A stretch of DNA of 64,000 nucleotides, taken from IMG/VR virus record IMGVR_UViG_3300027573_000964; one strand, written 5' to 3'. A model generated the notes under the pieces. That model searched no databases. It saw only the letters and a program-made list of their open reading frames with translations, and had not been told where the DNA came from. Both the position numbers and the translations under genes were made by a program. The DNA comes from a virus. This document shows, one piece after another, positions 4,705 through 50,889 of the stretch (within the stretch, counting starts at the first letter, position 1; each line of letters begins with the position of its first letter).

Positions 4705-5760
4705 TTAACTCAGAGCATAGTCATATATAATATCACTGCACAATTCATCTAAAGCAGGCCTGTCGGGTTCTCTTGGTAGTTTAGAAGTTTCATACGCTGT
4801 TACAATCTCTGTTTCCATCTTTTCAGCGTATTCCTCTATTTGCTCATATTTCCAGGCACCATTTCGGATTGCCAAAAGTTCTTCTCTATCTGGTCGATAT
4901 ACTTGAACTTTTCCAGTCTCTAAGATTTCTTTACCCATACGCATAAGTCTAACTAAATGCGCAGCATGTTTAGTATCATATCCGTGCTTTTCTTCTAATG
5001 CCGAACGAGCCGCATTACGAGTATTTTTCCAGCTTTGATAAGAGTTCCATTTCGTAAGAGCATTTTCATACTCTTTCTCTTTAAATACAGCCTGCATTAA
5101 ACCATCTGAAAAATTCATAGTAGTCTTAAGTAATTCCATTTGTTCTGGAGTAAAACTATGAGATTGAACTAAACCGATATAGTTTAATTTTGATAGCTCT
5201 TCTTTAGCTGCGTCTGTTAATAGAGTGTATTGAACAGAGTCTTCTAACATCTTTGCGATGAGCCAATCTATGCCACCCATACCATCCTTGGAAAGTATTT
5301 TTCTATCAGGTAATCCAAAGTCGGACCGTTCTGGCTTTCCCTTTGGTGGATTTAATAAATAGCCTCTATGGTTCTTTATACGCTTTAATTGAGCAAAGGC
5401 ATAACCGGTATAGGTATAGCGGGCCTTTTTAGAAAGAAAAGCATCACGCTTGTCTAATACACGCTCCCAATAAGGTGTTATTTTTTGATAGAACTTGCTG
5501 TCTGTAAAGAGCAAATCCAGCATATTAGGGTTACAATCACTAATGAGCTTGAAGGCCTTACGGATATCGTATATAACTGTATCCTTGGTTGGGTCTTCGT
5601 ATTGCTCAAAGTGCTTTAAAAAGCCCGTGTAATAGCCTACGTCGTCCGGTATTGCGATTCCGCGGATATCTATGTCGCTGGTAGGTGTATTTGTACCATA
5701 CGCCGTAGAGCCCGTTATAGTGGAAAATATGGTACAACGCTCAATATCAGTTTTTTGCAT
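4705..5760 (-). CDS. Pol-beta superfamily nucleotidyltransferase (function unknown; minimal-NTase / class-I CCA-like head)
   Basis: 351 aa; GSTAYGTNTPTSDIDIRG = GS-x9-13-DxD NTase signature. Confidence 0.5.
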   Translation of the reverse strand: MQKTDIERCTIFSTITGSTAYGTNTPTSDIDIRGIAIPDDVGYYTGFLKHFEQYEDPTKDTVIYDIRKAFKLISDCNPNMLDLLFTDSKFYQKITPYWERVLDKRDAFLSKKARYTYTGYAFAQLKRIKNHRGYLLNPPKGKPERSDFGLPDRKILSKDGMGGIDWLIAKMLEDSVQYTLLTDAAKEELSKLNYIGLVQSHSFTPEQMELLKTTMNFSDGLMQAVFKEKEYENALTKWNSYQSWKNTRNAARSALEEKHGYDTKHAAHLVRLMRMGKEILETGKVQVYRPDREELLAIRNGAWKYEQIEEYAEKMETEIVTAYETSKLPREPDRPALDELCSDIIYDYALS

Positions 5761-6616
5761 CTAATAAACTTTCTTCTGCCTCTATTGATATTGCGCTTGG
5801 CATTCTACCGCCGCACAATATACAGCAATCTTTATATATATACCTTGATAAGTTTGTTCTTTGGAAACCCACACTGGTTCGTGTTCTTGAGCTTTTTAAA
5901 GTAAGTTCGAACTGACCACAATTACCACAGTTTCCTTTAAGAGAAACCATACCAGGCTTTCCAAGATTTATAGACTCTTGATACTTCTTCCAAATAACTT
6001 CAGCTCGCTCACGATGTCTTAATACAGAACCAAATAACAAAGTCTTAAATTCTTCGCCGTCTCCTACTTTCTCAAATATATTATAGGCCAAGTGATTATT
6101 TGATAGTAATGATTCTAGTGCCTTGAGCCTGCCTACAGATGGCAACTCTTTCAGAGCTTCTATTCTAGGAGTATATCTTGCTTGATATATTCCATCTGGG
6201 CAACTTTTGTTGTGCGCTAGAAATCTCAAAGCATTTGCTTCTTGCTCTATAGTTATACCTTCATACATAAGAGAAAGTTTGCCCACGGCTATATCTTCAC
6301 TATTTACTACAAGTTCTCTAATTTCATTTTTACTATCATATGGTATTATTTCAGTTAACAGCTTACACAATCCGTAAGATTTTGAAGCATTATAGTTTGT
6401 TCTCGAAAAAGCGGCCTTTGCCAATTCCATTTTAGTTTGCAGTTGTGGCACAGCTTTAATAAGAGTTGTAACACCATCTATATACCAATAATATCTGGAT
6501 TCACTATTTTGTTGTAAAAAGAAAGCTATGGTTTCATCCTTGTCCGCTTGGCTTGCTGCATTAAAATTTCTTACCAGCCCATAATAGTGCCAAGAGTCTT
6601 TAAATGTATAACTCAT
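5747..6616 (-). CDS. hypothetical protein with C-terminal Cys4 zinc ribbon
   Basis: 289 aa; GNCGNCG...CCILCGG; stop/start adjacent to Thg1-like gene. Confidence 0.5.
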   Translation of the reverse strand: MSYTFKDSWHYYGLVRNFNAASQADKDETIAFFLQQNSESRYYWYIDGVTTLIKAVPQLQTKMELAKAAFSRTNYNASKSYGLCKLLTEIIPYDSKNEIRELVVNSEDIAVGKLSLMYEGITIEQEANALRFLAHNKSCPDGIYQARYTPRIEALKELPSVGRLKALESLLSNNHLAYNIFEKVGDGEEFKTLLFGSVLRHRERAEVIWKKYQESINLGKPGMVSLKGNCGNCGQFELTLKSSRTRTSVGFQRTNLSRYIYKDCCILCGGRMPSAISIEAEESLLDAKN

Positions 6617-7374
6617 TATTCTGCCTTGAAGTCTAAAATCTCTTTCAGGAAGTTTCGATCCTGTGAGAATATTGGAAGGTCTTTATCTATTTCCCAAGCA
6701 GACCTTTCAACTGTTGTGCCATCATTAAGAGGAACAACGTATTTCTTTTTATAACAACCAATCCCTCGTTTAAAACTTGCGGGATAATCATTCCAGTTTA
6801 TTCCAGTTTTTTGGAATAGTAATTCTTGTAGCTCTGCACCTCGAAGCCCGTGCATGAGCTTTTGTGTCGTCTTTCTGCCTTCTTTAGCACTCACTTCGTA
6901 ATAGGCTGCTGCTTGGATACTATTTTTAGTAGCATCCCTCTGGCGCCATACTAGACAGTTAATTGCTTCGTCTAATGTAGGCACAGCAAACACTCTCGTA
7001 TCGAAGTATGCCTGTCGCCCAGTCACTTGAGATGCAAAATAAGCAGTGAATAATGAAGAGGTTATGCTAACCATCTTCTGTATTCGATTGTTGAACCAAG
7101 GCTGACTTTCATCAGACTGATCGTTTCTTAACACGAAAGTTGATTCATCCGATTGTGTATAACCGAATAAGCAACCCTCTATACTTGAAGCTGTAAATCG
7201 TGTAGTTTCGGCCATAGCTTTCATTAGAGTTTCGTCAAATGGTTTCTTAAAGCCCATCGCTTTTGTATATTTAGAGAAACCTTTGCCATCCACACGAATA
7301 ACAATAGGTGTTCGAGCCTGCATTTTAAAATCGTAGCAGTCTTCGTACGCCTTCATTCTGTCGCCAAGATTCAT
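6616..7374 (-). CDS. Thg1-like protein (tRNA-His guanylyltransferase family 3'-5' nucleotidyltransferase)
   Basis: ORF 6616..7413; likely start at second Met (ATGA overlap with upstream stop). Motifs IVIRVDGKGFSKY and GYTQSDESTFVL align to Thg1 VVVRLDGRNF / AYGQSDEYSFVF; FDTRVFAVPTL...WRQRDA matches Thg1 C-domain. Confidence 0.8.
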   Translation of the reverse strand: MNLGDRMKAYEDCYDFKMQARTPIVIRVDGKGFSKYTKAMGFKKPFDETLMKAMAETTRFTASSIEGCLFGYTQSDESTFVLRNDQSDESQPWFNNRIQKMVSITSSLFTAYFASQVTGRQAYFDTRVFAVPTLDEAINCLVWRQRDATKNSIQAAAYYEVSAKEGRKTTQKLMHGLRGAELQELLFQKTGINWNDYPASFKRGIGCYKKKYVVPLNDGTTVERSAWEIDKDLPIFSQDRNFLKEILDFKAE

Positions 7375-7679
7375 TGTGGTACCAGTGTTAAGTGTTCTGC
7401 GGGAAGGATACATTCATTATAGTAGCCGTAGTATTTTCCCCACTGCAAAGGAAGATGTCTGTTTGGTATTCCAAAAGTCATTTCCATATATTTTCTTATT
7501 CTATCGTGTCTAGCAAAAATAGTTCGGTCGAATATTACTGTATATAAATCACTATCTGCAACTCTACCAGCAATACTACCAGTAACTTCCACCGTATCCC
7601 AGTGCGAACTGCCCATTTTAGCTACATACTTTACTTTATTTCCGTATCCAAAATTACCAGGAGTCAGTGTTTGGGTCAT
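7371..7679 (-). CDS. hypothetical protein
   Basis: 102 aa ORF. Confidence 0.45.
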   Translation of the reverse strand: MTQTLTPGNFGYGNKVKYVAKMGSSHWDTVEVTGSIAGRVADSDLYTVIFDRTIFARHDRIRKYMEMTFGIPNRHLPLQWGKYYGYYNECILPAEHLTLVPQ

Positions 7680-8394
7680 ATTGTAATCCCTGTGGTTTGG
7701 GTATATAAAATCCCTTATGATGATATTTTAATACTCGTTCTACGAATGGAAGAGCTATATTGCCCTTGGTTCCAAATATGCTTTTAACTTTAGATAAGAA
7801 ACCAGAAACATTCTTTTCTATGTTCAGATGTAAGGTTCTTGTAATTAAATCAGCTATGGCTTCTCTGTTAGAATAAAAGGTATCACAATCTATAGCAAAC
7901 TTACACACACTTATATCGAAATTGTCTATAATTTCTAACGGCGAACCAAACAAACTTACTGGCGTTCCGTCATGCAGTTTCTTATTCTCTGCGTCACCGG
8001 CACCCACCACCTGTAAAATGACACCCTCTTCTTTATTAAAGAATGTTTTTGCGTAAGTCGTGTCGTTAGTTTCAATAAAATCATATTGTTCTACAAATAA
8101 AGCGAAACTGCTTGCTGCATCTTTATTTCTAAAGAAGAAATCTATATCATTACTAGAATCATCTTGCAAAAGCCAGGCTAACACAGCGCCGCCAGACATA
8201 AATCCATTGTGACTTAACAACCAATGAAGCCTTGGGTCTTCTAAACCCATTTGACTTTTAAATTCATTGTAAGGAACTATAATATTTTTATGTACAGTTT
8301 CTTTTTTATATACGCCATATGGAATATTATTGTGCTTTTTTATTTCTAAGTCGGACACCTGGCAAAGAAATTTAACTTGCTCTTGCGTTAGCAT
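7654..8394 (-). CDS. hypothetical protein, possible nucleotidyltransferase fold
   Basis: 246 aa; MSGGAVLAWLL...NDIDFFF resembles G[GS]...DxD NTase motif. Confidence 0.4.
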   Translation of the reverse strand: MLTQEQVKFLCQVSDLEIKKHNNIPYGVYKKETVHKNIIVPYNEFKSQMGLEDPRLHWLLSHNGFMSGGAVLAWLLQDDSSNDIDFFFRNKDAASSFALFVEQYDFIETNDTTYAKTFFNKEEGVILQVVGAGDAENKKLHDGTPVSLFGSPLEIIDNFDISVCKFAIDCDTFYSNREAIADLITRTLHLNIEKNVSGFLSKVKSIFGTKGNIALPFVERVLKYHHKGFYIPKPQGLQYDPNTDSW

Positions 8395-8603
8395 TACATT
8401 CCTTTAAGGATTTCTTGTTCTAATTTAACTTTAAGATTTGCCATACCCTTTATAATATCATATAGCTTATTTCGTTCTACTTGCAACATATCGTAATTAC
8501 AACAAGTGGGCATACCAAATACTTCAACTTGTCTTTCGGTGGGCTCATCCATTAAGTCACCACAATAAATACATATTCTAACTGGGTCTATCATTTCGCT
8601 CAT
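8394..8603 (-). CDS. hypothetical zinc-ribbon protein
   Basis: 69 aa; CIYCGD...CCNYD. Confidence 0.45.
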   Translation of the reverse strand: MSEMIDPVRICIYCGDLMDEPTERQVEVFGMPTCCNYDMLQVERNKLYDIIKGMANLKVKLEQEILKGM

Positions 8604-8778
8604 GAGCTTCTCCGATTCATTTAATAGTAAAGATGGAATTTTGGGTAAATAGAACGGTCTGTATATATTGCTACATACATCATTTGATAACCATCACCAA
8701 GACGTTCGTAAGGTCGAGTCTCTGTTTTAATGATTTTATTCTTAAGCAACACATAGTACAATTCTAATATATCAGGAT

Positions 8779-9438
8779 TCATTTTGCTAACAAATTTCTA
8801 GTTACCTGTTTGTGTATCCAGTGACCATCGTCTTCCATATTCTTTACGAACTCTTCTCTAACCACTTTGCCCTTCATTCCATTGCGGTGATTCCAGACAA
8901 CTATACCTTCCGCCGGTTCAGAGCCACATGCTGATGGGTCAGGGATTAAATCGAACAATTCGGTTTTATCATAATGACCTTGGCATATGAATGGGGTAGT
9001 TGCTAGTCCTATCTTGTCGCAAAGCTCTTCCATATCCATACGATGCTTAAATTCGTCCGTCTTTCTATCAACCCACGCAAACGCTAGAAAGTAATCAGGC
9101 AGCTTATCATAGAATACAGTGTGTTTAGCATACATCAATTCGCCGTATAACACTGTGCCCTCTGGTATCTGCATCAGCTTATCTTGGTTAAGCTGACTCC
9201 AAGCCTTGAAGAAGTTGAACTGTTCGTGCTCACTCATATCTACTAGAGAACCACGCTTTTGTAGCTTGAAGGTATCTTTGTGACGCACTATGCCAACATT
9301 AGCACCATCAACCTTTTCAGTAATAGTGACCGTTCCGCCTAATAGTAATTTAGTTTCTGCATCCGATAAATAGTGCTTGCCTTTAACATCAATTTGGGGC
9401 ACTAAAATGCGGTATGTCTTTTCATATTTGCGGAACAT
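8779..9438 (-). CDS. Rnl2-family polynucleotide ligase nucleotidyltransferase domain protein (KxDG-N), stand-alone
   Basis: 219 aa; TITEKVDGANVGIV matches K-x-[DH]-G-x-N motif I of Rnl2/REL ligases; no C-terminal domain. Confidence 0.5.
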   Translation of the reverse strand: MFRKYEKTYRILVPQIDVKGKHYLSDAETKLLLGGTVTITEKVDGANVGIVRHKDTFKLQKRGSLVDMSEHEQFNFFKAWSQLNQDKLMQIPEGTVLYGELMYAKHTVFYDKLPDYFLAFAWVDRKTDEFKHRMDMEELCDKIGLATTPFICQGHYDKTELFDLIPDPSACGSEPAEGIVVWNHRNGMKGKVVREEFVKNMEDDGHWIHKQVTRNLLAK

Positions 9439-13070: not shown

Positions 13071-13469
13071 TTACTTCCAGCCTTTCTTTGTGAAAGCCAT
13101 AACCTTCCCAGTCAGAGAAGGCCCTGCTGCATTTTCGAACTTGTTTGTACGAGTTAATTGATTAGAATACACTGGTTTGGTATCTGGCGATGTACTAATG
13201 GTTACGTGTGGCATTTCGCTATCATACCTATCGAACCCGCTTACTACGACAGCTTGACCCTTCTCATCGAAATAGTGGGCTAACACCAGCAAATTAACTG
13301 GCTTACCCAACATCGGTTCTAACTCGTCATTAATTTCTTTGGTAGGACCAAAGGCGATAGTCATATGCTCTGCATATACTTTGGCATGCTTTGGTGGAAA
13401 GGCAGCTAATAGCTTGCCCTTACTCGCATCATCCAGTTTTACCGCCCAATAAATAACATCGTTAATCAT
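13071..13469 (-). CDS. 2H phosphoesterase (LigT / cyclic phosphodiesterase-like)
   Basis: 132 aa; two H-x-T-x motifs (EHMTIAFG and PHVTISTS). Confidence 0.5.
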   Translation of the reverse strand: MINDVIYWAVKLDDASKGKLLAAFPPKHAKVYAEHMTIAFGPTKEINDELEPMLGKPVNLLVLAHYFDEKGQAVVVSGFDRYDSEMPHVTISTSPDTKPVYSNQLTRTNKFENAAGPSLTGKVMAFTKKGWK

Positions 13470-15528: not shown

Positions 15529-15603
15529 TGGTGACCCCAAGGAGACTCGAACTCCTGTAGTTGCCGTGAAAGGGCAGTGTCCTAACCGCTAGACGATGGG
15601 GCC
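15529..15603 (-). tRNA. tRNA-Glu(UUC)
   Basis: RC: GGCCCCATCGTCTAGCGGTTAGGAC-ACTGC-CCTTTCACG-GCAAC...GGTTCGAGTCC...CCA; cloverleaf, CCA encoded. Confidence 0.9.
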
Positions 15604-16037
15604 TAATATTTGAACCATCCAACTAAATCACTTTTAATCTTTTTATAGTCTATTTCTTTTCTGCTTATTTTGGAACGAGCGTAATAAAAATCTCTATAAA
15701 ATTTATTTTCTGGCACTCGTGAATCTTTTTCATTACCAGGCATATCGTATCTATTTATATTACCGCAGCATAATTCGTATAAGCTTTGCCAGTATTCTTC
15801 GTGTTCAATTTGTGCTTGGCTTATTTTATATACACCGAATACTCTGTGTGTATATTTTTTATTTTCTATAAAGTAATCTTCATCATCAATGTAGAAGAAC
15901 CAATACTTTTGCCCAAGCCATTCGCACATACCATCTAATTCACCGTCATACCAGCCATCATACCAAAGCATTTTAAAGTCGATATTATTAGTTAGATTAG
16001 GGACATTTGCTAATAACTGTTTTGTTTCTTCGTGCAT
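15603..16037 (-). CDS. hypothetical protein
   Basis: 144 aa ORF; TAG stop abuts tRNA-Glu. Confidence 0.5.
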   Translation of the reverse strand: MHEETKQLLANVPNLTNNIDFKMLWYDGWYDGELDGMCEWLGQKYWFFYIDDEDYFIENKKYTHRVFGVYKISQAQIEHEEYWQSLYELCCGNINRYDMPGNEKDSRVPENKFYRDFYYARSKISRKEIDYKKIKSDLVGWFKY

Positions 16038-16258
16038 TCTTGTTCGTATAACCTTTGTCGTTCTTCTGGGCTTTTGTTCATCAGGTCAGTTATTTCAAAT
16101 CCGGCTCTGTGAAGCGCTATAATTATGTTATGTTCATTTAAATGGTTTTCACAAATATTCACTTCTAATCCAGTGGCTAATAGGCCACGGGAAAAAAGCA
16201 AGTCTCTTGTTATTTTACCACCACAGGGCGTTCCTAACACCCAAGAACAATCATTCAT
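16010..16258 (-). CDS. small conserved protein, paralog family A, copy 2
   Basis: 82 aa; CSWVLGTPCGGK...NICENHLNEH. Confidence 0.6.
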   Translation of the reverse strand: MNDCSWVLGTPCGGKITRDLLFSRGLLATGLEVNICENHLNEHNIIIALHRAGFEITDLMNKSPEERQRLYEQECTKKQNSY

Positions 16259-16523
16259 TATTTTCCAATTCTTCTAAATATGCTGTTGGGCTTTGGCCGG
16301 GCTCTAAATATACAATATTCTTAAAGCCGTTCTCTTCTGTAATAATCGATTCTTTTTCGGAGATAGCGCCAGTGTATTTCTTCCAGCCCTTCTTATGAAC
16401 GAACTCGCCGGTAGAAGGATTAATTGAACCCCATTCAACTCTCTCACGAGGCTCTATTGGCTCTACGCAATACACCTTGCCAGTCTTAAGCGACTGTATA
16501 TAAAATCGTCCCGTTTCACTCAT
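16251..16523 (-). CDS. hypothetical protein
   Basis: 90 aa ORF. Confidence 0.45.
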   Translation of the reverse strand: MSETGRFYIQSLKTGKVYCVEPIEPRERVEWGSINPSTGEFVHKKGWKKYTGAISEKESIITEENGFKNIVYLEPGQSPTAYLEELENNE

Positions 16524-16779
16524 TCTTTGCTCCCAGCGTATATTCTCTTAAAATCTCAAGAGTCCAATCTGGTCTTTCTTCTATAAAGCTTATCACCTTA
16601 TTTACGCTATATACAAAGTCAGTGTAGTCTAAACCAGCCGGCATATGAGACCTTGTAGAATAGGCATATCCAGTTAGTGCCGCGAGAAATCTTTTTGTTA
16701 GAATAACAGCGGTTTCTCGCTCTTTCTTCTCTTCTTCGCTCACAGTATTATCTACTGGTTTTGGAGGAGGTGTGGGCAT
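16516..16779 (-). CDS. hypothetical protein
   Basis: 87 aa ORF. Confidence 0.45.
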   Translation of the reverse strand: MPTPPPKPVDNTVSEEEKKERETAVILTKRFLAALTGYAYSTRSHMPAGLDYTDFVYSVNKVISFIEERPDWTLEILREYTLGAKNE

Positions 16780-16948
16780 TATTTTGTAGCTAATTCTTTC
16801 AGCGTTTTCTCGTGTTCAACAGTCCAGTTGGCAGGACTAGTCTCTTCTAATATTTTTAGAATGTTAAACTTGTCCTGCACTACTGATAACTCTAATCGAA
16901 CTTTTTGATACGCTAAATCAAATAATTCTCTATTAGTCATTTATTTGA

Positions 16949-17158
16949 TTAGACGGCTCTTACTTCTTTAGCCTCTAAGCCCTTCTTACCTTGGGCTGTC
17001 TCAAACTCTACGCGCTGGCCTTCCGCCAAACTGCGATGTCCATCACCTTGAATGCCAGTGAAATGAACGAAAACATCGTTTCCGCCTTCATCTGGGGTAA
17101 TGAACCCATAACCCTTATCATTATTAAACCACTTTACTATTCCTGTAACCATATTCAT
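16949..17158 (-). CDS. cspA: cold-shock protein, CspA family
   Basis: 69 aa; [15 protein letters not shown]...DVFVHFTGI...[10 protein letters not shown]...GKKGLEA typical CSD. Confidence 0.85.
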
Positions 17159-17203
17159 TTATTTCCTTTTATTACTAAACAACTATCCGTTGTTCTTGTT
17201 ATT

Positions 17204-17488
17204 CTATTTGGGGTCTTTCGACTTTTTCCAATTTTCTTCTGGACCAAACATTTCATTTACTAATTTCCAATTTACATTACAGCGTCTAGGATTATCCTTG
17301 GATGCTCTATATGCCGCACACTTGGTCATAAACTCTGGCCAAGATGGAACTGTGTGATCTATTTTAACACCATCGCCGAGTGTTGCCCATAATTCCTCGT
17401 CGTTTTCCCAACACATATTGTTGCCAGTCTGTTCGCGGTGTTTGCGAATAGCATCTTCTAACTGTTGTATTCGTTCTTTGTCTGTCAT
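17204..17488 (-). CDS. hypothetical protein
   Basis: 94 aa ORF. Confidence 0.45.
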   Translation of the reverse strand: MTDKERIQQLEDAIRKHREQTGNNMCWENDEELWATLGDGVKIDHTVPSWPEFMTKCAAYRASKDNPRRCNVNWKLVNEMFGPEENWKKSKDPK

Positions 17489-17634
17489 TTAGAGCTTCTA
17501 TTTATTAAGGGCTGCCAATCTTTTAAATTTTGCATATTTTCTCTTACAATCTTTTCTGTTAGATTAGCTACATCTTTTTTACCAGTTAGGGCCTCTTTAT
17601 ATATCATTTTAATTACAATGTTCATATTTCGTAT

Positions 17635-17710
17635 TGGAGCCTCTGATAGGAGTCGAACCTACAACCTCGACTTTACAAAAGTCTTGCTCTGCCAGTTGAG
17701 CTACAGAGGC
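17635..17710 (-). tRNA. tRNA-Thr(UGU)
   Basis: RC GCCTCTGTAGCTCAACTGGCAGAGC-AAGAC-TTTTGTAA-AGTCG...GGTTCGACTCC...CCA. Confidence 0.85.
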
Positions 17711-17711
17711 A

Positions 17712-17894
17712 TTAATCTTCTGCCACTATGTATGTTCCTGCTGTAACAACTTCGTCATATTCTTTGCATTTGCAATGAGCGCAGGGACGCTTTCTAAAAT
17801 CAAAATGATTATTAGGTCTATGTCCGCACTTACAGGCAAGTAAATCTAATTCAAGTGCTTCTTTACGGGTAAATTCAATAGTTATTTTTTTCAT
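17712..17894 (-). CDS. hypothetical zinc-binding protein
   Basis: 60 aa; CKCGH...CAHCKC. Confidence 0.4.
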   Translation of the reverse strand: MKKITIEFTRKEALELDLLACKCGHRPNNHFDFRKRPCAHCKCKEYDEVVTAGTYIVAED

Positions 17895-18184
17895 GGTATA
17901 TTATTATTTTCAATTAACCCAAGCGATAACAATTTTTGTCTTCCAGTATTCACATCACCATTTTCATAATTGTAGGTGCTATCCGTTAAACAACTGAATC
18001 CGTTTTGGTCCAACAGACTATCTATACCAAGCTCGTTATCTAGTAAATAGCCCTCACTATCAAAATATGACTTAGGAGTTATAGAGAAGAAATCACCGTC
18101 GCTGTATGGGTCTTGTGGATTGCCTGCGTGCATCTTAAAATAGTAATCTTTGGGCGATTCTGAAAAGTCTAAATCTTCTTCCAT
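17891..18184 (-). CDS. hypothetical acidic protein
   Basis: 97 aa ORF. Confidence 0.45.
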   Translation of the reverse strand: MEEDLDFSESPKDYYFKMHAGNPQDPYSDGDFFSITPKSYFDSEGYLLDNELGIDSLLDQNGFSCLTDSTYNYENGDVNTGRQKLLSLGLIENNNIP

Positions 18185-18205
18185 ATTGCTTATTCCTTTC
18201 TAATT

Positions 18206-18282
18206 TGGCGGGTGCGATCGGAGTTGAACCGACACCTCATTCCTCGACAGGGAATTGCTCTACGCGATTAAGCTACGCACCC
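18206..18282 (-). tRNA. tRNA-Asp(GUC)
   Basis: RC GGGTGCGTAGCTTAATCGCGTAGAGC-AATTCC-CTGTCGA-GGAAT...GGTTCAACTCC...GCCA. Confidence 0.85.
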
Positions 18283-18284
18283 AC

Positions 18285-18371
18285 TGGCGGAAGCAGAGAG
18301 ACTCGAACTCCCAAGCGCTTTTAGACGCCGCCTGCTTTCAAGGCAGGTTCCTCATCCAGCCGGATTACTTC
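18285..18371 (-). tRNA. tRNA-Ser(UGA), type II (long variable arm)
   Basis: 87 nt; acceptor GGAAGTA/TGCTTCC, anticodon arm CCTGC-CTTGAAA-GCAGG, long variable arm, T-loop TTCGAGT, CCA encoded. Confidence 0.75.
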
Positions 18372-18569
18372 CAATTCTTTCTCTGTAAGCCACCCATGTT
18401 CGTATATATTGTAGAAGTGTCTTTGGGCGGAAATATAATCTTTTGACATACTATTGCTTATAACTACTTGTGCAAATACTCCGCCAGTATTCTTACTTAC
18501 TACTAACTCGCGTATCTTCCAATCAAGACCTAAATGCATTATGTATGTTTCATATACGGTTCTATTCAT
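18321..18569 (-). CDS. hypothetical protein (3' end runs ~50 nt into tRNA-Ser gene)
   Basis: 82 aa ORF. Confidence 0.4.
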   Translation of the reverse strand: MNRTVYETYIMHLGLDWKIRELVVSKNTGGVFAQVVISNSMSKDYISAQRHFYNIYEHGWLTEKELEVIRLDEEPALKAGGV

Positions 18570-18831
18570 CCATTATATCTACTTCGACAACATAGTAATC
18601 TGTGCCGGTATAATCCATACTGATATGCTTGTCGTAAGGAGATATGAGCTGCTCTCTCGCCTCAAATACGCTCTTGCCCTCATCATCCACTTTTTCTTTC
18701 AATAGATGAGCCCATATCATTGCGTCGTCCGCGTGCTTTCTTGCGACGTCTTCGTTTCTATAGCCGCATACTGGCCACTCAGTTCTATCCGAATATTCGC
18801 CAGTTGTTCCAAATACTATATATACTTTCAT
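18562..18831 (-). CDS. hypothetical protein
   Basis: ORF 18562..18888 trimmed to internal Met MKVYIVFG; first 19 codons lie in tRNA-Ala gene. Confidence 0.5.
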   Translation of the reverse strand: MKVYIVFGTTGEYSDRTEWPVCGYRNEDVARKHADDAMIWAHLLKEKVDDEGKSVFEAREQLISPYDKHISMDYTGTDYYVVEVDIMDE

Positions 18832-18844
18832 TCTTTCTTTCGTT

Positions 18845-18920
18845 TGGTGGAGCTGATCGGGATCGAACCGACTACCTCCTGAATGCAAATCAGGCGCTCT
18901 CCCAGATGAGCTACAGCCCC
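18845..18920 (-). tRNA. tRNA-Ala(UGC)
   Basis: RC GGGGCTGTAGCTCATCTGGGAGAGC-GCCTGA-TTTGCAT-TCAGG...GGTTCGATCCC...CCACCA; G3:U70 Ala identity pair present. Confidence 0.9.
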
Positions 18921-18922
18921 AA

Positions 18923-19114
18923 CTATCGATTTGTTTTTAAGTAGTAAGGAATATCTAAGCCATAGCGAAGGCTTATAACAAATGATACTCCATCTTTACC
19001 GAGCATACAATTTTTAATACGCTCTACTCTATTTGAATTTAATCCACTCTTCTCATTAAAGTCAAGTCTTGGACGAAACATAAATCCATATACTGCTATC
19101 AAGTCTTTATTCAT
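18923..19114 (-). CDS. hypothetical small protein
   Basis: ORF 18923..19255 trimmed to internal Met (MNKDLIAVYG); upstream part spans tRNA-Val/tRNA-Gly. Confidence 0.4.
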   Translation of the reverse strand: MNKDLIAVYGFMFRPRLDFNEKSGLNSNRVERIKNCMLGKDGVSFVISLRYGLDIPYYLKTNR

Positions 19115-19122
19115 TTTCGCTT

Positions 19123-19197
19123 TGGTGGGACTAATAGGATTCGAACCTATGACTTCCTGCGTGTAAAGCAAGCACTCTACCGCTGAGTTATAGTCCC
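19123..19197 (-). tRNA. tRNA-Val(UAC)
   Basis: RC GGGACTATAACTCAGCGGTAGAGTG-CTTGC-TTTACAC-GCAGG...GGTTCGAATCC...CCACCA. Confidence 0.85.
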
Positions 19198-19203
19198 AAG
19201 AAT

Positions 19204-19281
19204 TGGTGCGGGATAAGGGATTCGAACCCTTACGTTCGACTTGGAAGGCCGACATGCTAAACCGTTAAACATCAACCCCGC
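19204..19281 (-). tRNA. tRNA-Gly(UCC)
   Basis: RC GCGGGGTTGATGT...-TCGGC-CTTCCAA-GTCGA...AAGGGTTCGAATCCCTT...CACCA; long D-loop. Confidence 0.8.
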
Positions 19282-19432
19282 ATTTATGATTTTCTTCATA
19301 ATGCTTTATCCATTTTCCCATAAATGAACAACGGAGTAGGTTGCATTACCTACAATCTCACTACAACTACAATAAAGATGGAAGTATTTCTTGCCATTTA
19401 TGTGTAGTTCTTCTATTTTATATTTCATCGTT

Positions 19433-19508
19433 TGGTGCGCGAAGTAGGAGTCGAACCTACAACATCTCGCTAATCGGGCGAGCGCTCTCCCAGTTGAGCT
19501 ATCCGCGC
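19433..19508 (-). tRNA. tRNA-Ile(GAU)-like; anticodon loop CCGAUUA (C33, U37 unusual)
   Basis: RC GCGCGGATAGCTCAACTGGGAGAGCG-CTCGC-CCGATTA-GCGAG...GGTTCGACTCC...GCACCA. Confidence 0.7.
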
Positions 19509-19739
19509 ATATATTCTTGGCTTAAGCCACTCAAATATAGGCTGACGGATTGCTGGGTGAGGTCTTGCCACTCCATTAATCCATCTATGCACTGTGGAAT
19601 TAGCTACTCCAAATTCATTGCCGATTTCTCTGTCAGTTATACCTAAATGCAAGCTGTATCTAATTATATCTCTAAAAACAATATCGTCAAGTATATTATT
19701 CAGTTCCAATGCATATATTATTCTAGCGAATTTTCCCAT
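19470..19739 (-). CDS. helix-turn-helix DNA-binding protein (3' end overlaps tRNA-Ile by ~39 nt)
   Basis: 89 aa; ITDREIGNEFGVANSTVHRWING = HTH. Confidence 0.5.
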   Translation of the reverse strand: MGKFARIIYALELNNILDDIVFRDIIRYSLHLGITDREIGNEFGVANSTVHRWINGVARPHPAIRQPIFEWLKPRIYARIAQLGERSPD

Positions 19740-20365
19740 AGTTCTTCGTTAGGCTTTCTTTCAGCAACTCGTTTAATCACTGCCCTAATCTCATTCCAGT
19801 TTTCACCAGTCGCTCTAATTACTTGCTCCGGGTGTTGTTCGACGAAACTTGCGTTATACTCATACGCCGGCATAATAACCATACCACGAGGACGCCAATG
19901 TAACCAGCGCTCGCAATATAACGGCCAATCGTCGATGAGTATCTTGCCATACATTAAACCCTTGTCTTCAGTAATCGTAACCGGCACATTAGGCAGATGT
20001 TCTCTACACCATTCCACTTTTTCTGTCCAAGCACCAGTAGTTTTATATGGCCCTTTAGTTAGAACATGTAGGTCAAAATTAAATTCTTTAAGTATCTCTA
20101 CAATTTTAAAACCAAGTTCAATCTTGGGTAATGTTCTCCAAAACCCAGGAACTCTTTTGATCATATCAACGGCAGGCTTATACTTATCCATGAACCATTC
20201 GCCGGTAGATTCTGGGCCAAACAACTCTGCCAGTTTATTCCTAACGGCACCTTCGTAATCACAAAGGGTCTGGTCCATATCTATAAGCGCTATATTCACT
20301 TGCTGTCTCTTCCAATTTGATAACCAACGTAACCAGAAACTAAAGCAACTAATGCTATAAAGCAA
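19718..20365 (-). CDS. HAD-superfamily phosphatase / 5'-nucleotidase-like
   Basis: 215 aa; IALIDMDQTLCDYEG = DxDxT motif I. Confidence 0.55.
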   Translation of the reverse strand: MLYSISCFSFWLRWLSNWKRQQVNIALIDMDQTLCDYEGAVRNKLAELFGPESTGEWFMDKYKPAVDMIKRVPGFWRTLPKIELGFKIVEILKEFNFDLHVLTKGPYKTTGAWTEKVEWCREHLPNVPVTITEDKGLMYGKILIDDWPLYCERWLHWRPRGMVIMPAYEYNASFVEQHPEQVIRATGENWNEIRAVIKRVAERKPNEELWENSLE

Positions 20366-20378
20366 ACTGCTACTAAAA

Positions 20379-20597
20379 TCATTTTATCTTCCATAAGTGA
20401 TAGGGCAAATATCTATCTATATAATATTGAATATCGTGGTATCTGTATGATTCTTCATACATTAATGAGTAGCCCTCATCATTATCCCACTCAATCTCTT
20501 CGTGTATGCCGGCGGCTGCGATATAAACTCTTAACTCTGATACCGGCACCTTTTTAGATAAGGCAAATTCATATACTTGTTTAATGTGTATGTTCAT
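20379..20597 (-). CDS. hypothetical protein
   Basis: 72 aa ORF. Confidence 0.45.
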   Translation of the reverse strand: MNIHIKQVYEFALSKKVPVSELRVYIAAAGIHEEIEWDNDEGYSLMYEESYRYHDIQYYIDRYLPYHLWKIK

Positions 20598-20601
20598 CGT
20601 A

Positions 20602-20680
20602 TGGTGGGCCAGGCTGGATTCGAACCAGCGACACCCCGCTCTTCAAACGGGTGCTCTACCTAAATCTGAGCTACCGACCC
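20602..20680 (-). tRNA. tRNA-Phe(GAA)
   Basis: RC GGGTCGGTAGCTCAGATTTAGGTAGAGC-ACCCGT-TTGAAGA-GCGGG...GGTTCGAATCC...CCACCA. Confidence 0.85.
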
Positions 20681-20697
20681 TCATTTGTTTTTCGATT

Positions 20698-20773
20698 TGG
20701 TGGGTCCTGTGGGAGTCGAACCCACGACCGTCAGATTAAAAGTCTGCTACTCTACCAGCTGAGTTAAAGACCC
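20698..20773 (-). tRNA. tRNA-Lys(UUU)
   Basis: RC GGGTCTTTAACTCAGCTGGTAGAGTA-GCAGA-CTTTTAA-TCTGA...GGTTCGACTCC...CCACCA. Confidence 0.85.
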
Positions 20774-20933
20774 AAATTGTTTATGAATTCTTGAAGATTT
20801 GTTTTCTTTGATACATTTTCAGTTAAATTAATATATGGTGAAATTCCATCTACATCATATACTATGCTCATCAAACGAGGTTGAACATGAAAATCTAATC
20901 TATAACTATATATATCGTGTATCCAATTTGGCA

Positions 20934-21281
20934 TTATTTTTTAACTCTACGACGAACCTTTTTGGTTTCGTTTTTAACATCTTTTTGTTTTGCTGCCCAT
21001 AATAAAAAGTTCTGTAGCGTAATTAGATGTTTAGCATTATAAGGCATTTTGGTTAAAGTTATGTGACGCATTTCTTTCGTCCAGCCTAATTGTCTTGCCT
21101 TATCAGTATATTCTAAAGCCACTTTACTTACATCATCTACAAGTTCGAGTTTCAAAGCACTTAAATATACCTGCTTAATTATTTCAAAAGCATCTTTCTC
21201 GTAATATGTAGCAAATTTAATATTCATATCATCGGCTCTGATATATCTTAACATGTCTTTGTCCATATGTATAAATGCCAT
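20934..21281 (-). CDS. hypothetical protein
   Basis: 115 aa ORF. Confidence 0.5.
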   Translation of the reverse strand: MAFIHMDKDMLRYIRADDMNIKFATYYEKDAFEIIKQVYLSALKLELVDDVSKVALEYTDKARQLGWTKEMRHITLTKMPYNAKHLITLQNFLLWAAKQKDVKNETKKVRRRVKK

Positions 21282-21294
21282 TTGTCTATTCGTT

Positions 21295-21372
21295 TGGTAG
21301 CGGAGGTTGGATTTTAACCAACGACCTCCTGGGTATGAACCAGGCGAGCTAAACGGGCTGCTCCACCCCGCT
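21295..21372 (-). tRNA. tRNA-Met(CAU) (elongator-type or Ile-lysidine type; A1:U72)
   Basis: RC AGCGGGGTGGAGCAGCCCGTTTAGCTCG-CCTGG-TTCATAC-CCAGG...GTTGGTTAAAATCCAAC...CTACCA. Confidence 0.8.
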
Positions 21373-21474
21373 ATATGTATTCTATCAGTAATCCATCTTC
21401 ACAAATTGTTAATATATATTTAGATAATGTTTTATCTATAAGATATGTCTTGTACAGCTCTCTTATTGTGATAT

Positions 21475-21747
21475 TCATTTTTTGTATGCAATTGAAAAGC
21501 GTATGGTTGAAATATCAAAGCCTCTTCGCTCCAACTCTTCTACAAATGTCGTTTCCCCGCCTCCGGTATCATACTTTACATAAGAGAAATAATGATTTAG
21601 AAGGTGGCCATCTACGCGTTGTTTCGGATGATAAAACATTACGTCTTTTTCTTTTTCTGACCAATATACCCTAAGTTTATTTTTGGGCTTTAATCTTTCT
21701 TTCATTATTTTACCAATATTCGTCGTAGTGTCCAGCAACATCCACAT
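21475..21747 (-). CDS. hypothetical protein
   Basis: 90 aa ORF. Confidence 0.45.
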   Translation of the reverse strand: MWMLLDTTTNIGKIMKERLKPKNKLRVYWSEKEKDVMFYHPKQRVDGHLLNHYFSYVKYDTGGGETTFVEELERRGFDISTIRFSIAYKK

Positions 21748-22066
21748 TTAACTTTTCTAAAGATATTTTTATCTTTCCATATACGGTAAATGTGTTAGGC
21801 TTCTTGCATCCTTCAACTCCGCCTCTGCTATCAAATCCGGCAGTAAGTTCCAAAAAGTCGATATCTTTGCAATCGTCTCGTTCTAAAGCGGTCAAAGTCG
21901 GACGCCCACCATATCTAAACCCACACAAGTAAAGTGTTTCGCCTTTATCTATCTTAATTTCCAGTTGATTGGTGTCGTAATCTCCACCATATCCGCCTGC
22001 TTTAATGCTCTTAATGCCTTTGATTTTAGATAGGCGTTGTATCATTTTGTTAGTTTGCCAGTGCAT
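21710..22066 (-). CDS. hypothetical protein
   Basis: ORF 21710..22141 (GTG-initiated in track) trimmed to internal ATG; upstream codons are the tRNA-like gene. Confidence 0.45.
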   Translation of the reverse strand: MHWQTNKMIQRLSKIKGIKSIKAGGYGGDYDTNQLEIKIDKGETLYLCGFRYGGRPTLTALERDDCKDIDFLELTAGFDSRGGVEGCKKPNTFTVYGKIKISLEKLNVDVAGHYDEYW

Positions 22067-22078
22067 TATCTTCCTATT

Positions 22079-22165
22079 TGGCGCACGAGGAATGGGTTCG
22101 AACCATCGGCCTCTCAATAGACTTTTACCTCTATCGAGCACTCTACCGGCTGAGCTACATCGTGC
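22079..22165 (-). tRNA. atypical tRNA-like gene (87 nt): canonical acceptor/D/T arms but 9-bp anticodon stem with 8-nt loop GGUAAAAG
   Basis: RC GCACGATG-TA-GCTC-AGCCGGTA-GAGT-G-CTCGATAGA-GGTAAAAG-TCTATTGAG-AGGCC-GATGG-TTCGAAC-CCATT-CCTCGTGC-G-CCA; sequence confirmed against overlapping ORF translations. Confidence 0.5.
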
Positions 22166-22176
22166 ATATTTTCGAT

Positions 22177-22251
22177 TGGTCTGGGTGGAGAATTTTGAAA
22201 TCTCGACCTCCTGTTCCCAAAACAGGCGCGCTGCCTCTGCGCCACACCCAG
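22177..22251 (-). tRNA. tRNA-Pro(UGG)
   Basis: RC CTGGGTGTGGCGCAGAGGCAGCGCG-CCTGT-TTTGGGA-ACAGG...TTCAAAA...CACCCAGACCA. Confidence 0.8.
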
Positions 22252-22695
22252 TTATATTACAGACAGTATATCTTTATACCATCCCATTTGTTTTATCGTT
22301 TTTAACCTGTGGCACATTAGACATCTAATTTCGCATTTATCTATTTCTAATTGTATCTTTTCTATACCACATCCGCTTCTGCTTAAATCGCTAACATGCC
22401 TTTCTTTATTATTTGTGTGGTCAAAATCTAAAAATATTGGGTTGTTTTCACCACAATCTACACATGGATGGCTACTAAGATATTCCCATACATATGCTGA
22501 GTTTCGTTTGACCCGTCCCTTGTGGGCCGCGACTTTAAGCTTTTTGGTTTTAGCATCAAGTTTCTTATAATGTGCCTTATCGTACTTACTGGCACAACTT
22601 CTACACCAAGGACTGAGCAAACCTGTTTTGCTGTTTCTAACACTGAAACAATTTGTATCCTTATCTGAATTACATTTGTTGCAATGTTTTAACAT
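22252..22695 (-). CDS. HNH homing endonuclease
   Basis: 147 aa; CVDCGENNPIFLDFDHTNN...CLMCHR HNH motif; sits inside tRNA cluster. Confidence 0.7.
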   Translation of the reverse strand: MLKHCNKCNSDKDTNCFSVRNSKTGLLSPWCRSCASKYDKAHYKKLDAKTKKLKVAAHKGRVKRNSAYVWEYLSSHPCVDCGENNPIFLDFDHTNNKERHVSDLSRSGCGIEKIQLEIDKCEIRCLMCHRLKTIKQMGWYKDILSVI

Positions 22696-22696
22696 A

Positions 22697-23005
22697 TTAC
22701 CTTGGAGGATGCAATAGATATAGCGCCTTTTGAGTTTCTCTTATCGCTTCCTGATATTCTTCTATTTTTGCTAATGCTTGTTGCTCTTCTGCTATATACA
22801 TCGAACCATGGTTTGTCAAGATTAAATGACGTTTTCCAGTAACATCTTCCATGACATAACCTTCACTGTCGCATTCCCAAGCGTGCCAATAGACCTTAAA
22901 CTCAAATATCTTCCTTAACTCGGTTGTTATTTGAGGCCCATCGCCATCTTTCCAGGTACAATCATATCTGTCACCATCTCTATAGGATATGCTTACATTG
23001 TTCAT
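22697..23005 (-). CDS. hypothetical protein
   Basis: 102 aa ORF. Confidence 0.5.
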   Translation of the reverse strand: MNNVSISYRDGDRYDCTWKDGDGPQITTELRKIFEFKVYWHAWECDSEGYVMEDVTGKRHLILTNHGSMYIAEEQQALAKIEEYQEAIRETQKALYLLHPPR

Positions 23006-23265
23006 TGCTTCATCCGTTGCGTAAGGGTTGTGAATTTTCCCTCTTTAACACCATCAAAAAATCTTTTAGTAAGTGCTGTGCTTTTAGCTTTTGGCATATA
23101 CATGGTGCCATGCTCATTAAGTATTAATACTTCATCAGGATTAAATATCCAATCCGGATCAGCTATTGAAACACCATCATCATAGAACCAGAACATCCAC
23201 TTGTATAAATCTATCATAGCTGGATGCATTATACTTTCCAATTTTCCGGTCCGACGCTCCACCAA
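23002..23265 (-). CDS. hypothetical protein
   Basis: 87 aa ORF. Confidence 0.45.
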   Translation of the reverse strand: MVERRTGKLESIMHPAMIDLYKWMFWFYDDGVSIADPDWIFNPDEVLILNEHGTMYMPKAKSTALTKRFFDGVKEGKFTTLTQRMKQ

Positions 23266-23423
23266 ATATCATTACATATAGTGCAGGTGAATTTATAGTC
23301 TTGAATTTTACCCTGTAATGCCTCCCAAACCTGATATACTACGCTTTTCTTACTGCACTTCAAGCAATAGTTGCCTACTTTTTCAGCAGGTTTAAGTGTT
23401 CCATCGTCTTCAATAAGGGGCAT
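23229..23423 (-). CDS. hypothetical zinc-ribbon protein
   Basis: 64 aa; CLKCSKK...CTIC. Confidence 0.4.
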   Translation of the reverse strand: MPLIEDDGTLKPAEKVGNYCLKCSKKSVVYQVWEALQGKIQDYKFTCTICNDIWWSVGPENWKV

Positions 23424-23436
23424 TAGTTTCCTCGAT

Positions 23437-23529
23437 TGGCGGAAGGCAAGAGATTCGAACTCTCATCCCCTTTTACGGGGAACTGGTTTAGCAAACCAGC
23501 GCAGCAAACCAGGTATCTGCCTACCTTCC
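23437..23529 (-). tRNA. tRNA-Ser(GCU), type II
   Basis: 93 nt; acceptor GGAAGGT/GCCTTCC, anticodon arm CTGGT-TTGCTAA-ACCAG, variable arm CCCC-GTAAAA-GGGG, T-loop TTCGAAT, CCA. Confidence 0.8.
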
Positions 23530-23532
23530 AGT

Positions 23533-23609
23533 TGGCGGGAGCATAAGGATTCGAACCCTAACTATTCGTTTTGGAGACGAACGTGCTGACCGTTAAACAC
23601 TATACTCCC
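23533..23609 (-). tRNA. tRNA-Trp(CCA)
   Basis: RC GGGAGTATAGTGTTTAACGGTCAGCACG-TTCGT-CTCCAAA-ACGAA...GGGTTCGAATCC...GCCA. Confidence 0.85.
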
Positions 23610-24177: not shown

Positions 24178-24367
24178 TGGAAGCTCGTTCTACTATTCCG
24201 TTTTTTATGTGCAGATTAATTCTATCTAATCTATAATCCATAGTTAGTATATAGCTACTGCCTTCGTAACTACTTACTCTTGGAACAAAACCAAGAACCT
24301 TTATGGCATATCTTGCCAGCCTCATATCAAGGCCTACTATTTGTTGGGCCAATTCTTTTGCTATCAT
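24170..24367 (-). CDS. peptidase inhibitor I78-like small protein, copy 1
   Basis: 65 aa; TMDYRLDRINLHIKNGIVERASIG resembles I78 domain (...DYRxDRLN...G.V.R..xG). Confidence 0.45.
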   Translation of the reverse strand: MIAKELAQQIVGLDMRLARYAIKVLGFVPRVSSYEGSSYILTMDYRLDRINLHIKNGIVERASIG

Positions 24368-50888: not shown

Positions 50889-50889
50889 A

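Follow-up and report, generated by a model that had tools for sequence, protein, structure and literature searches.

An eight-gene block encoding a Thg1-like protein, RlaP, a Gad2-type nucleotidyltransferase and a minimal RNA ligase in a clade of jumbo phages

The DNA analysed here, referred to as the window, comprises 64,000 nt of the viral IMG/VR record IMGVR_UViG_3300027573_000964; all positions relate to this stretch, and counts of window genes are based on approximately 136 genes. All window genes are located on the minus strand. Eight of them, from position 9438 down to 4705, form one co-oriented block that begins with an RNA ligase gene, includes a gene encoding a Thg1-like protein (TLP), and ends with a gene encoding a nucleotidyltransferase (NTase) of the RlaP family. 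On balance, we favour the reading that this eight-gene unit serves to mend damaged ends of RNA, the most likely targets being tRNAs that nucleases of host defence systems have cut or trimmed. This reading builds on direct observations, namely the membership of the products in known families, their intact catalytic residues, the dense packing and conserved order of the genes, and the fact that related phages have either both or neither of the TLP and ligase genes. Statements on the content of PMC2904730, PMC3061083, PMC3701042, PMC4820378, PMC7824862, and PMC11404450, as well as on the substrate range of RlaP in PMC12776372, refer to the parts of these papers drawn on here.

Gene content and packing of the block

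A first-pass annotation, made from the sequence without database searches, had described a cluster of RNA end-healing genes in this region. Profile searches reproduced all of its domain calls at or near the positions it had assigned. Starting from the high-coordinate end, the block encodes a minimal RNA ligase of the Rnl2 superfamily (8779..9438, 219 amino acids (aa); PF09414 with E = 5e-27, phrog_24030 with 6e-21), a 53-aa protein known from the list of open reading frames (ORFs) (8621..8782), whose gene overlaps the ligase stop codon by 4 nt, a 69-aa protein with a CxxC...CC arrangement of cysteines (8394..8603), recognised from its sequence and by tblastn in relatives, and a Gad2-like NTase of the Pol-beta fold (7654..8394, 246 aa; precomputed PF26128 label and hhalign). 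These are followed by a gene for a 102-aa protein (7371..7679), the stop codon of which overlaps the TLP start (ATGA), by the TLP gene itself (6616..7374; Thg1 with 9e-32, Thg1C with 4e-7, phrog_4717 with 6e-74), by a gene for a 289-aa HEAT/ARM-like helical-repeat protein with a Zn ribbon (5747..6616), identified from a predicted model and an alignment of homologs, and by the gene of the RlaP-family Pol-beta NTase (4705..5760; PF10127 with 7e-20, phrog_388 with 3e-62 over the full length).

Within the block, the junctions between adjacent genes range from -26 to +17 nt and include ATGA and TAATG overlaps. A gap of 153 nt follows RlaP and holds the best sigma-70-like match of the first 15 kb. 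In the simplest reading, the eight-gene block is one transcription unit. On its low-coordinate side, profile matches identify an NT5C nucleotidase (4006-4551), an RNase_T/DnaQ-type exonuclease (3456-4016), and an ATP-dependent DNA ligase (1378-2634), the three flanking genes that had been named at first pass. In case of the DNA ligase ORF, the 418-aa version matches PF01068 (1e-11), whereas a 443-aa version (1378-2709) is without a Pfam match.

Conservation and co-occurrence in related phages

Proteins identical to those of the block are encoded on a 170,947-bp JGI contig and on the ENA contig ERZ27267619 k141_116371 of 468,446 bp, and the block thus belongs to a jumbo phage with a genome of 468 kb or more. 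The window fits the ENA contig at approximately 279,927-343,926 and would overrun the JGI contig by about 20 kb. At the nucleotide level, the block has no match among GenBank phages. Relatives were found on other metagenomic contigs by a profile search with the 289-aa protein, and one of them (L016; JGI 3300041075 Ga0452204_000001) has a length of 481,011 bp. The window therefore represents a jumbo-phage clade with genomes of about 470-480 kb and without a close relative among GenBank phages.

In L016, L017, L018, and L020, the proteins of which are 31-67% identical to those of the window, the genes occur in the order ligase, small Zn protein, Gad2-like NTase, approximately 100-aa protein, TLP, helical-repeat protein, RlaP, and NT5C. 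The RlaP tree comprises three deep lineages, and the block order is kept in three deep lineages of the clade. TLP and ligase are both present in the window and in these four relatives, and both are absent from L008/L009 and L022/L023, where RlaP, the helical-repeat protein, and the Gad2-like NTase stay. No discordant contig, i.e., with TLP but without ligase or the reverse, was found among the five carriers and the two non-carrier lineages. In L008/L009, both genes are cleanly missing and their neighbours are in place; since L008 is nested among carriers, this state is derived and amounts to the co-loss of two genes that do not adjoin each other. L022/L023 belong to the third lineage, and their Gad2-like gene is situated on the other side of RlaP. 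Thg1 had originally been placed at the centre of the cluster, a view that does not hold, as the two lineages lacking Thg1 and the ligase retain RlaP, the helical-repeat gene, and the small NTase.

Among the small proteins of the block, the 69-aa protein probably binds Zn, judging from its cysteines, and is conserved in the clade, with 39-45% identity by tblastn in L008, L016, L017, L018, L020, and L022. Its gene is located directly upstream of the Gad2-like or the helical-repeat gene every time. Weak homologs of the 102-aa protein occur at the equivalent position in L017, L018, and L020. For the 53-aa protein, neither a Pfam nor a PHROG match was obtained, and tblastn in distant relatives found no counterpart.

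The Thg1-like protein

The TLP scores 110 bits with PF04446 (cut-off 29.2) and 30.8 bits with PF14413, the Thg1 C-terminal domain (cut-off 26.3), and the motifs RVDGKGF and YTQSDESTF, corresponding to the two noted in the first-pass annotation, are found. Its closest solved structure is the TLP of Bacillus thuringiensis (4KGK, 4.5e-45), compared to 1e-15 to 1e-19 for eukaryotic Thg1 enzymes. An alignment of the catalytic Asp/Glu residues, suggested together with the initial Thg1 assignment as a check on it, proved them to be in place: the metal ligands D29, D76, and E77 are preserved and align with those of 4KGK and 5XOX, their numbering coincides with that of the human enzyme, and D29, G30, S75, D76, and E77 are invariant across nine phage TLP homologs. 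Where eukaryotic Thg1 has the anticodon-recognition motif HINNLYN (RYVDTHINNLYN), the window protein has RQRDATKNSI. Because 4KGK is the best solved match and HINNLYN is absent, the sequence assigns this Thg1 homolog to the bacterial-type TLP branch of the superfamily, and 3'-5' polymerase activity is predicted. All homologs begin at the methionine at position 7374, hence the annotated start is right.

Members of the TLP class repair 5'-truncated tRNAs in vitro by Watson-Crick templated 3'-5' addition (PMC3061083, PMC3701042, PMC4820378). The catalytic carboxylates and the TLP-type motif are common to the window protein, the B. thuringiensis TLP (4KGK/4KGM; PMC3701042), and archaeal TLPs (5AXK; PMC4820378). 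The B. thuringiensis enzyme is of equal length and approximately 40% identical, but the window protein differs in being phage-encoded among RNA-end enzymes. Thg1 homologs occur in 163 records of the phage collection.

The minimal RNA ligase

The ligase matches PF09414 with 95.6 bits (cut-off 27) over residues 36-183. K42 and D44 (EKVDG), G99-E100, E177-G178, and K191 are invariant in five orthologs, so that motifs III-V are conserved along with the nucleotidyltransferase motif I (KxDG), in line with the Rnl2-type ligase proposed for this ORF. The match to phrog_24030 involves only the C-terminal ligase half of that family, and the best solved match of the ligase profile is the NTase domain of T4 Rnl2 (1S68, E = 0.009). 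All orthologs have 219-221 aa and no OB or C-terminal domain, i.e., the protein is a stand-alone catalytic domain, as had been supposed. The accessory domain required for full nick sealing, which is C-terminal in T4 Rnl2 and an N-terminal OB domain in Rnl5, is absent from the 219-aa ligase. On its own, such an NTase domain would be expected to stall at step 2, when AMP is passed to the 5'-phosphate.

In L010 (775-1563) and L016 (4290-5030), a gene encoding an HNH endonuclease is situated on the opposite strand directly upstream of the minimal ligase gene. These genes may encode homing endonucleases, which could help to explain gain and loss of the ligase.

RlaP and its helical-repeat partner

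The Pol-beta-type NTase inferred at first pass for the last gene of the block is RlaP. PF10127 is matched with 72 bits (cut-off 23) over residues 10-128 only, whereas phrog_388 spans residues 7-344, and the catalytic signature GS...DxD is present as GSTAYGT...SDIDIRG. Orthologs with 55-58% identity occur in all relatives. RlaP is co-encoded with an RNA ligase, the gene of which is placed six genes upstream within the block; in L008 and L022 RlaP is kept without a nearby ligase. RlaP enzymes add one or two nucleoside monophosphates to the 3'-OH of damaged RNA and restore the aminoacylation of over-damaged tRNA after ligation (PMC12776372), and among cellular macromolecules they accept RNA only (PMC12776372). 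RlaP homologs were found in 412 records of the phage collection. In case of the best GenBank match, the 485-kb phage LR745208, no other block member is located within 10 kb of the RlaP gene.

The gene of the 289-aa protein adjoins RlaP in every lineage sampled. Its product has no Pfam or PHROG match, and tblastn against GenBank phages found none either. A model based on a 14-sequence alignment (predicted local distance difference test score (pLDDT) 83.6, predicted template modelling score (pTM) 0.80) gives a helical-repeat fold with a C-terminal Zn ribbon formed by C230, C233, C265, and C268. All four cysteines are invariant in 14 homologs, which bears out the Zn-ribbon protein of the first-pass annotation. 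A hidden kinase or ligase is ruled out, as there is neither a Walker A motif nor a KxDG motif and the confident model contains nothing beyond the helical repeats and the Zn ribbon. Going by this model, the protein is a probable adaptor or scaffold and not an enzyme.

A weak paralog of the helical-repeat protein is encoded in L017 (14221-14445) and L018 (11861-12244). The paralog gene, corresponding to approximately 300 aa, is situated between genes for a MoxR-type AAA+ ATPase and a DUF2201 protein, and its counterpart in the phage of the window lies just beyond the window start (L005:18359-19267).

The Gad2-type nucleotidyltransferase

The second NTase-like protein of the block, also noticed at first pass, is real: it displays a GG...DID...FD signature and is a homolog of the Gad2 catalytic domain. 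Our local Pfam copy, which is without the PF26128 model, yielded no match, but the precomputed annotation of the public collection assigns the protein and its relatives to PF26128 (Gad2). A Brevibacillus Gad2 verified by experiment (Yirmiya et al., supplement) was compared by hhalign with a 64-member alignment of the family, resulting in a match with a probability of 99.3% (E = 8e-21) over Gad2 residues 21-171. The family comprises 686 representatives at E up to 0.001. G68, G69, D83, D85, F159, and D160 are invariant in the 64 members and constitute the Pol-beta NTase signature GG...DxD...FD.

The best solved matches of the family profile are structures of human TRNT1 (1OU5, 4X4W, 8CBM; E = 7e-4 to 2e-3). 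The match spans head and neck; RRD and EDxxR are not kept, and body and tail are absent. PolyA_pol is weakly matched by three of the 64 family members. An AlphaFold2 model from a six-sequence alignment reached a pLDDT of 45 and was too poor to use. By profile comparison, the 246-aa protein is thus a Gad2-family catalytic domain; its resemblance to class II CCA-adding enzymes is distant and concerns their head domain. The full-length Gad2 architecture is not present (246 aa versus approximately 400 aa). Compared to Gad2, the anti-Gabija protein of SPbeta-like phages (bioRxiv 10.1101/2023.05.01.538930), the NTase domain is homologous and the GG...DxD...FD signature is found in both, but the window protein is without the C-terminal approximately 220 residues of Gad2, has a different N-terminus of 55 residues, and is encoded among RNA-repair genes.

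Further repair genes, tRNAs and neighbouring clusters

All features described in this section are located on the minus strand. Candidates for the remaining steps of RNA-end healing are dispersed over the window. A mini 2H phosphoesterase (13071..13469, 132 aa) has weak Pfam support (tRNA_lig_CPD 6e-5; 2_5_RNA_ligase2 1e-3), but both HxTx motifs (HMTI and HVTI) are found, and it is a candidate 2',3'-cyclic phosphodiesterase. Two HAD_SAK_2 phosphatases, a "Swiss Army Knife" type associated with RNA repair, are encoded at 36667..37188 (PF18143, 2e-27) and 37532..38023 (PF18143, 1.5e-30), the former being a candidate 3'-phosphatase. Together with two NT5C proteins they account for the four HAD phosphatases counted earlier. 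An Rnl1-type RNA ligase at 44313..45440 (PF09511 RNA_lig_T4_1, 1.3e-17) agrees with its previous designation. For the gene at 46021..47148, a fusion of an Rnl2 ligase with a tRNA-binding domain had been proposed, of which the ligase stands (RNA_ligase 8e-24; phrog_968 5e-45) and the fusion does not: the N-terminal part is an OB domain (PHA02142 OB 3e-10), which matches the Naegleria RNA ligase 5COT at approximately 9e-9, and OB plus ligase domain is the Rnl5/NgrRnl-like architecture. With the mini 2H protein, the two HAD_SAK_2 proteins, and three RNA ligases, the window has candidates for the 2',3'-cyclic phosphodiesterase/3'-phosphatase and the ATP-dependent ligase of a T4-type healing-and-sealing system. 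A six-frame scan of the window for Walker A motifs revealed one credible site only, which belongs to an AAA+ protein encoded at the very start of the window (3-188), and hence no polynucleotide kinase (Pnk) is encoded within the window, as the first reading of the sequence had indicated.

The HD-domain protein (51249-52091, profile match) and the further NTase recognised earlier near the end of the window were both recovered. The latter (49103-50044) is a second, divergent RlaP-like protein (phrog_388 1.1e-15; NTP_transf_2 5e-4, just below the Pfam cut-off). Together with a weak NAD-kinase-like protein (50004-50888) and a 118-aa protein, they form a tight cluster at 49103-52091, which may be another nucleotide- or RNA-end module.

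Thirteen of the 18 tRNA genes predicted by ARAGORN in the window are situated in a main array at 15529..23609; the others are found at 33588-33662 (tRNA-His), 34622-34713, 43152-43230, 43798-43872, and 48291-48369. In all 18 cases the 3' CCA is encoded and the acceptor stem is fully paired. Since CCA is encoded throughout, any CCA-adding activity here would serve repair, not maturation. In case of tRNA-His, G-1 is likewise encoded (G at 33663) and pairs with C73. Rfam adds two tRNA-like matches omitted by ARAGORN (18288-18372 and 22083-22164; 29.9 and 40.7 bits), which may be degenerate or unusual tRNAs. The tRNA at 43798-43872, labelled "Pyl" by ARAGORN, has the anticodon CUA of an amber suppressor. 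There is no sign of a TAG recoding tied to this tRNA, as TAG terminates 23 of the 136 window genes.

Several neighbouring genes relate to translation or NAD+ metabolism. A 308-aa protein with a PTH2-like peptidyl-tRNA hydrolase domain (24364..25290; PF01981 2e-5, phrog_14850 1e-61) is encoded beside an R2K-clade ATP-grasp protein (25618-26427). A 74-aa OB-fold protein of the IF1/eIF-1A type (13860-14084, precomputed PF01176), which all relatives (L008, L016, L017, L018) likewise encode a few genes upstream of the block, looks from its sequence like a phage-encoded translation initiation factor. A Preiss-Handler-type NAD+ salvage cluster consists of an isochorismatase/nicotinamidase-like protein (54403-55050), a glutamine-dependent NAD synthetase (55256-57256), and a nicotinate phosphoribosyltransferase (58186-59625), with an SPFH/Band-7 protein (57268-58176) among them. 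The cluster probably counters NAD+-depleting defences.

Proposed function and alternatives

As enzymes of the TLP family mend 5'-truncated tRNAs and RlaP extends 3'-OH ends, the tRNA repair and counter-defence role put forward at first pass is reasonable and matches published predictions; from the block we infer its substrates, the cooperation of its enzymes, and the counter-defence role. In the proposed pathway, RlaP would restore one or two nucleotides at the 3'-OH end. The TLP would activate the 5'-phosphate with ATP and rebuild lost 5' nucleotides in 3'-5' direction, with the opposite strand of the helix, e.g., of the acceptor stem, as template. The minimal Rnl2-type ligase would seal the nick between 3'-OH and 5'-phosphate, the HEAT-like Zn-ribbon protein may act as an RNA- or protein-binding adaptor, and the Gad2-type NTase, with its head domain resembling that of CCA enzymes, might supply an extra nucleotide-addition step. 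The kit would be completed from the same genome arm by the 2H and HAD_SAK phosphatase proteins, the two other RNA ligases, the PTH2-like protein, and 18 spare tRNAs.

A number of points weigh against this reading. Both the ligases and the TLP depend on a 5'-phosphate, and no polynucleotide 5'-kinase is encoded in the window, the scan having covered these 64 kb of a genome of which roughly 400 kb lie outside. Furthermore, we know of no phage-defence nuclease that truncates tRNA 5' ends. Co-absences are few, five carriers compared to two non-carriers, which amounts phylogenetically to at most two events. Synteny within the clade extends over the entire region, DNA-metabolism genes included, so that conserved order alone is no proof of a functional unit. 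RNA-repair genes being dense here, local clustering alone is within chance: with 10-12 such genes among approximately 136, three in a span of eight genes are expected with P = 0.5-0.7, and four in eight with P = 0.05-0.11, which is marginal. Thg1 loci in unrelated phages (L001-L004, comprising Bacillus PK-3, Staphylococcus PMBT8, Stenotrophomonas RAS14, and an IMG/VR contig) contain no RlaP or block-ligase homolog within 6-10 kb. Gad2 inhibits Gabija, a DNA-targeting defence; therefore, not every block gene need act on RNA, and the Gad2 relative points toward DNA-targeting defence.

Much of this also fits the main surviving rival, according to which there is no functional unit but a conserved depot of independent accessory or anti-defence genes, where RlaP and its partner act alone, TLP and ligase are separate cargo, and the Gad2-like protein counters a Gabija-like DNA-sensing defence. 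Chance suffices for three repair genes in eight, and the synteny covers NT5C, exonuclease, and DNA ligase as well. RlaP, the helical-repeat protein, and the Gad2-like NTase persist in L008 and L022 without TLP or ligase, in L022 with the Gad2-like gene on the other side of RlaP, and the HNH genes adjoining the ligase in L010 and L016 suggest mobile cargo. Like the distant Thg1 genes of L001-L004, distant Gad2-like genes (L013 and L014, of Bacillus and Aeromonas phages) have no annotated RNA-repair neighbours. A mere depot, however, does not account for eight genes packed with overlapping start and stop codons, for the strict co-occurrence of TLP and ligase, which are not adjacent, or for three of the eight products coming from families with demonstrated or predicted RNA-end action. 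We consider the depot unlikely, though it deserves to be taken seriously.

The repair reading may also be extended. It is tempting to speculate that the block specifies an assembled "acceptor-stem repairosome", that the Gad2 family consists of RNA or tRNA 3'-end NTases, and that TLP and ligase are an obligate pair, but the three propositions taken jointly seem rather improbable. The Zn-ribbon protein would then hold RlaP, TLP, Gad2-type NTase, and minimal ligase on one tRNA; the 3' strand of a chewed-back acceptor would be rebuilt first and the 5' strand copied from it, followed by sealing. Gad2-family enzymes would in this case derive from the head domain of a CCA-adding enzyme.

Instead of responding to host nucleases, the block could do housekeeping for phage translation, i.e., maturation and quality control of the at least 18 phage tRNAs, with the TLP securing G-1 of tRNA-His and the NTases and ligase mending 3' ends. 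The dense tRNA array lies approximately 6 kb from the block, a tRNA-His gene is present in the window, and bacterial TLPs can add G-1 opposite C73 (PMC3061083), the residue found in this tRNA-His. Yet G-1 is genome-encoded here, as in bacteria, where Thg1 is not needed for it (PMC3061083), which weakens the case for the TLP as a necessary source of this nucleotide. An editing of mismatched 5' acceptor ends, as in amoebozoan mitochondria, is ruled out by 18 fully paired stems. With G-1 and CCA encoded and all stems paired, the phage tRNAs require neither 5' editing nor CCA addition, and the TLP is not needed for their normal maturation; several ligases and end-healing enzymes would moreover make no sense for maturing intron-less tRNAs. 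We regard housekeeping as a doubtful explanation.

Very improbable, finally, is an action of TLP and ligase on non-tRNA substrates, such as phage mRNAs or small RNAs, whose 5' ends would be extended or given a cap-like mark, or RNA-DNA hybrid nicks in replication: NT5C, the DnaQ-type exonuclease, and the ATP-dependent DNA ligase do lie downstream of the block, Rnl2-type enzymes seal duplex nicks, and the Thg1 family extends any suitable templated 5' end (PMC11404450), but the 153-nt gap with its promoter-like site parts the block from the DNA-metabolism genes, the characterised TLP substrates are all tRNA-like, and RlaP is confined to RNA among cellular macromolecules (PMC12776372).

Relation to known systems

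The general concept of the repair reading is already in the literature (2010, 2021), and the gain lies in detail, not in a new principle. A jumbo-phage kit of several ligases, RlaP, a CCA-adding enzyme, sporadic Thg1, 2H, HAD, and PTH2 proteins, tRNAs, and NAD+ salvage was described in 2021 by Iyer, Anantharaman, Krishnan, Burroughs, and Aravind (PMC7824862). Its parts list matches that of the window, RlaP tracks ligases there, and the same role against tRNA-cleaving host immunity was proposed. That work surveys gene content across genomes, whereas the phage of the window has a co-oriented, codon-overlapping block conserved in its clade. Bacterial neighbourhoods of Thg1 (TLP), polynucleotide kinase, in part a Macro domain, and RNA ligase, for which a role in RNA repair was proposed, go back to Anantharaman, Iyer, and Aravind in 2010 (PMC2904730), who also raised the idea that Thg1 of phage 201phi2-1 serves repair against host defences. 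In that paper, the partner found most persistently with Thg1 in bacteria is a P-loop polynucleotide kinase; it is absent from the window, where RlaP and a Gad2-type NTase occur instead.

In phage T4, phage-encoded healing by Pnkp followed by ATP-dependent ligation by Rnl1 mends host tRNA cleaved by PrrC. T4 also has Rnl2 and the RlaP protein NrdC.11, and homologs of Rnl1, Rnl2-type ligase, and RlaP are all encoded in the window. Compared to T4, no Pnkp-type kinase is present in the window, so that healing would fall to separate 2H and HAD enzymes, and a TLP for rebuilding 5' ends is added, a step missing in T4. The claim that the cluster goes beyond the T4 system nevertheless overstates its novelty, given NrdC.11 of T4, the jumbo-phage kits of PMC7824862, and the combination of Thg1, ligase, and Pnk in PMC2904730.

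RlaP is located beside an RNA ligase in the RtcB-RlaP-RtcA operons of Pseudomonas as well (Carruthers, Fatma, and Huang 2025, PMC12776372), where it was proposed to act ahead of ligation by replacing nucleotides that nucleases, RloC for example, have removed. The block ligase is of the 5'-phosphate Rnl2 type and not RtcB, which removes the mismatch in end chemistry noted in PMC12776372, and RlaP is here always paired with the helical-repeat/Zn-ribbon protein.

In the parts of PMC7824862 and PMC2904730 drawn on here, the fixed block architecture, the pair of RlaP and helical-repeat protein, the Gad2-domain NTase inside the block, the reduction of the ligase to its catalytic domain, and the gain or loss of TLP and ligase together do not appear; the Gad2-type NTase and the helical-repeat/Zn-ribbon partner of RlaP, in particular, are not mentioned in those parts of PMC7824862.

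To our knowledge, the physiological substrate of bacterial-type TLPs is still unknown. In the present clade, the genetic context of the TLP is fixed and a ligase is always gained or lost alongside it; the clade further offers an unannotated helical-repeat/Zn-ribbon partner of RlaP and a short Gad2 relative among RNA-end enzymes. Each of these three is a testable lead on how phages protect the tRNA pool. If true, the obligate pairing of TLP and ligase would for the first time place a bacterial-type TLP in a physiological context.

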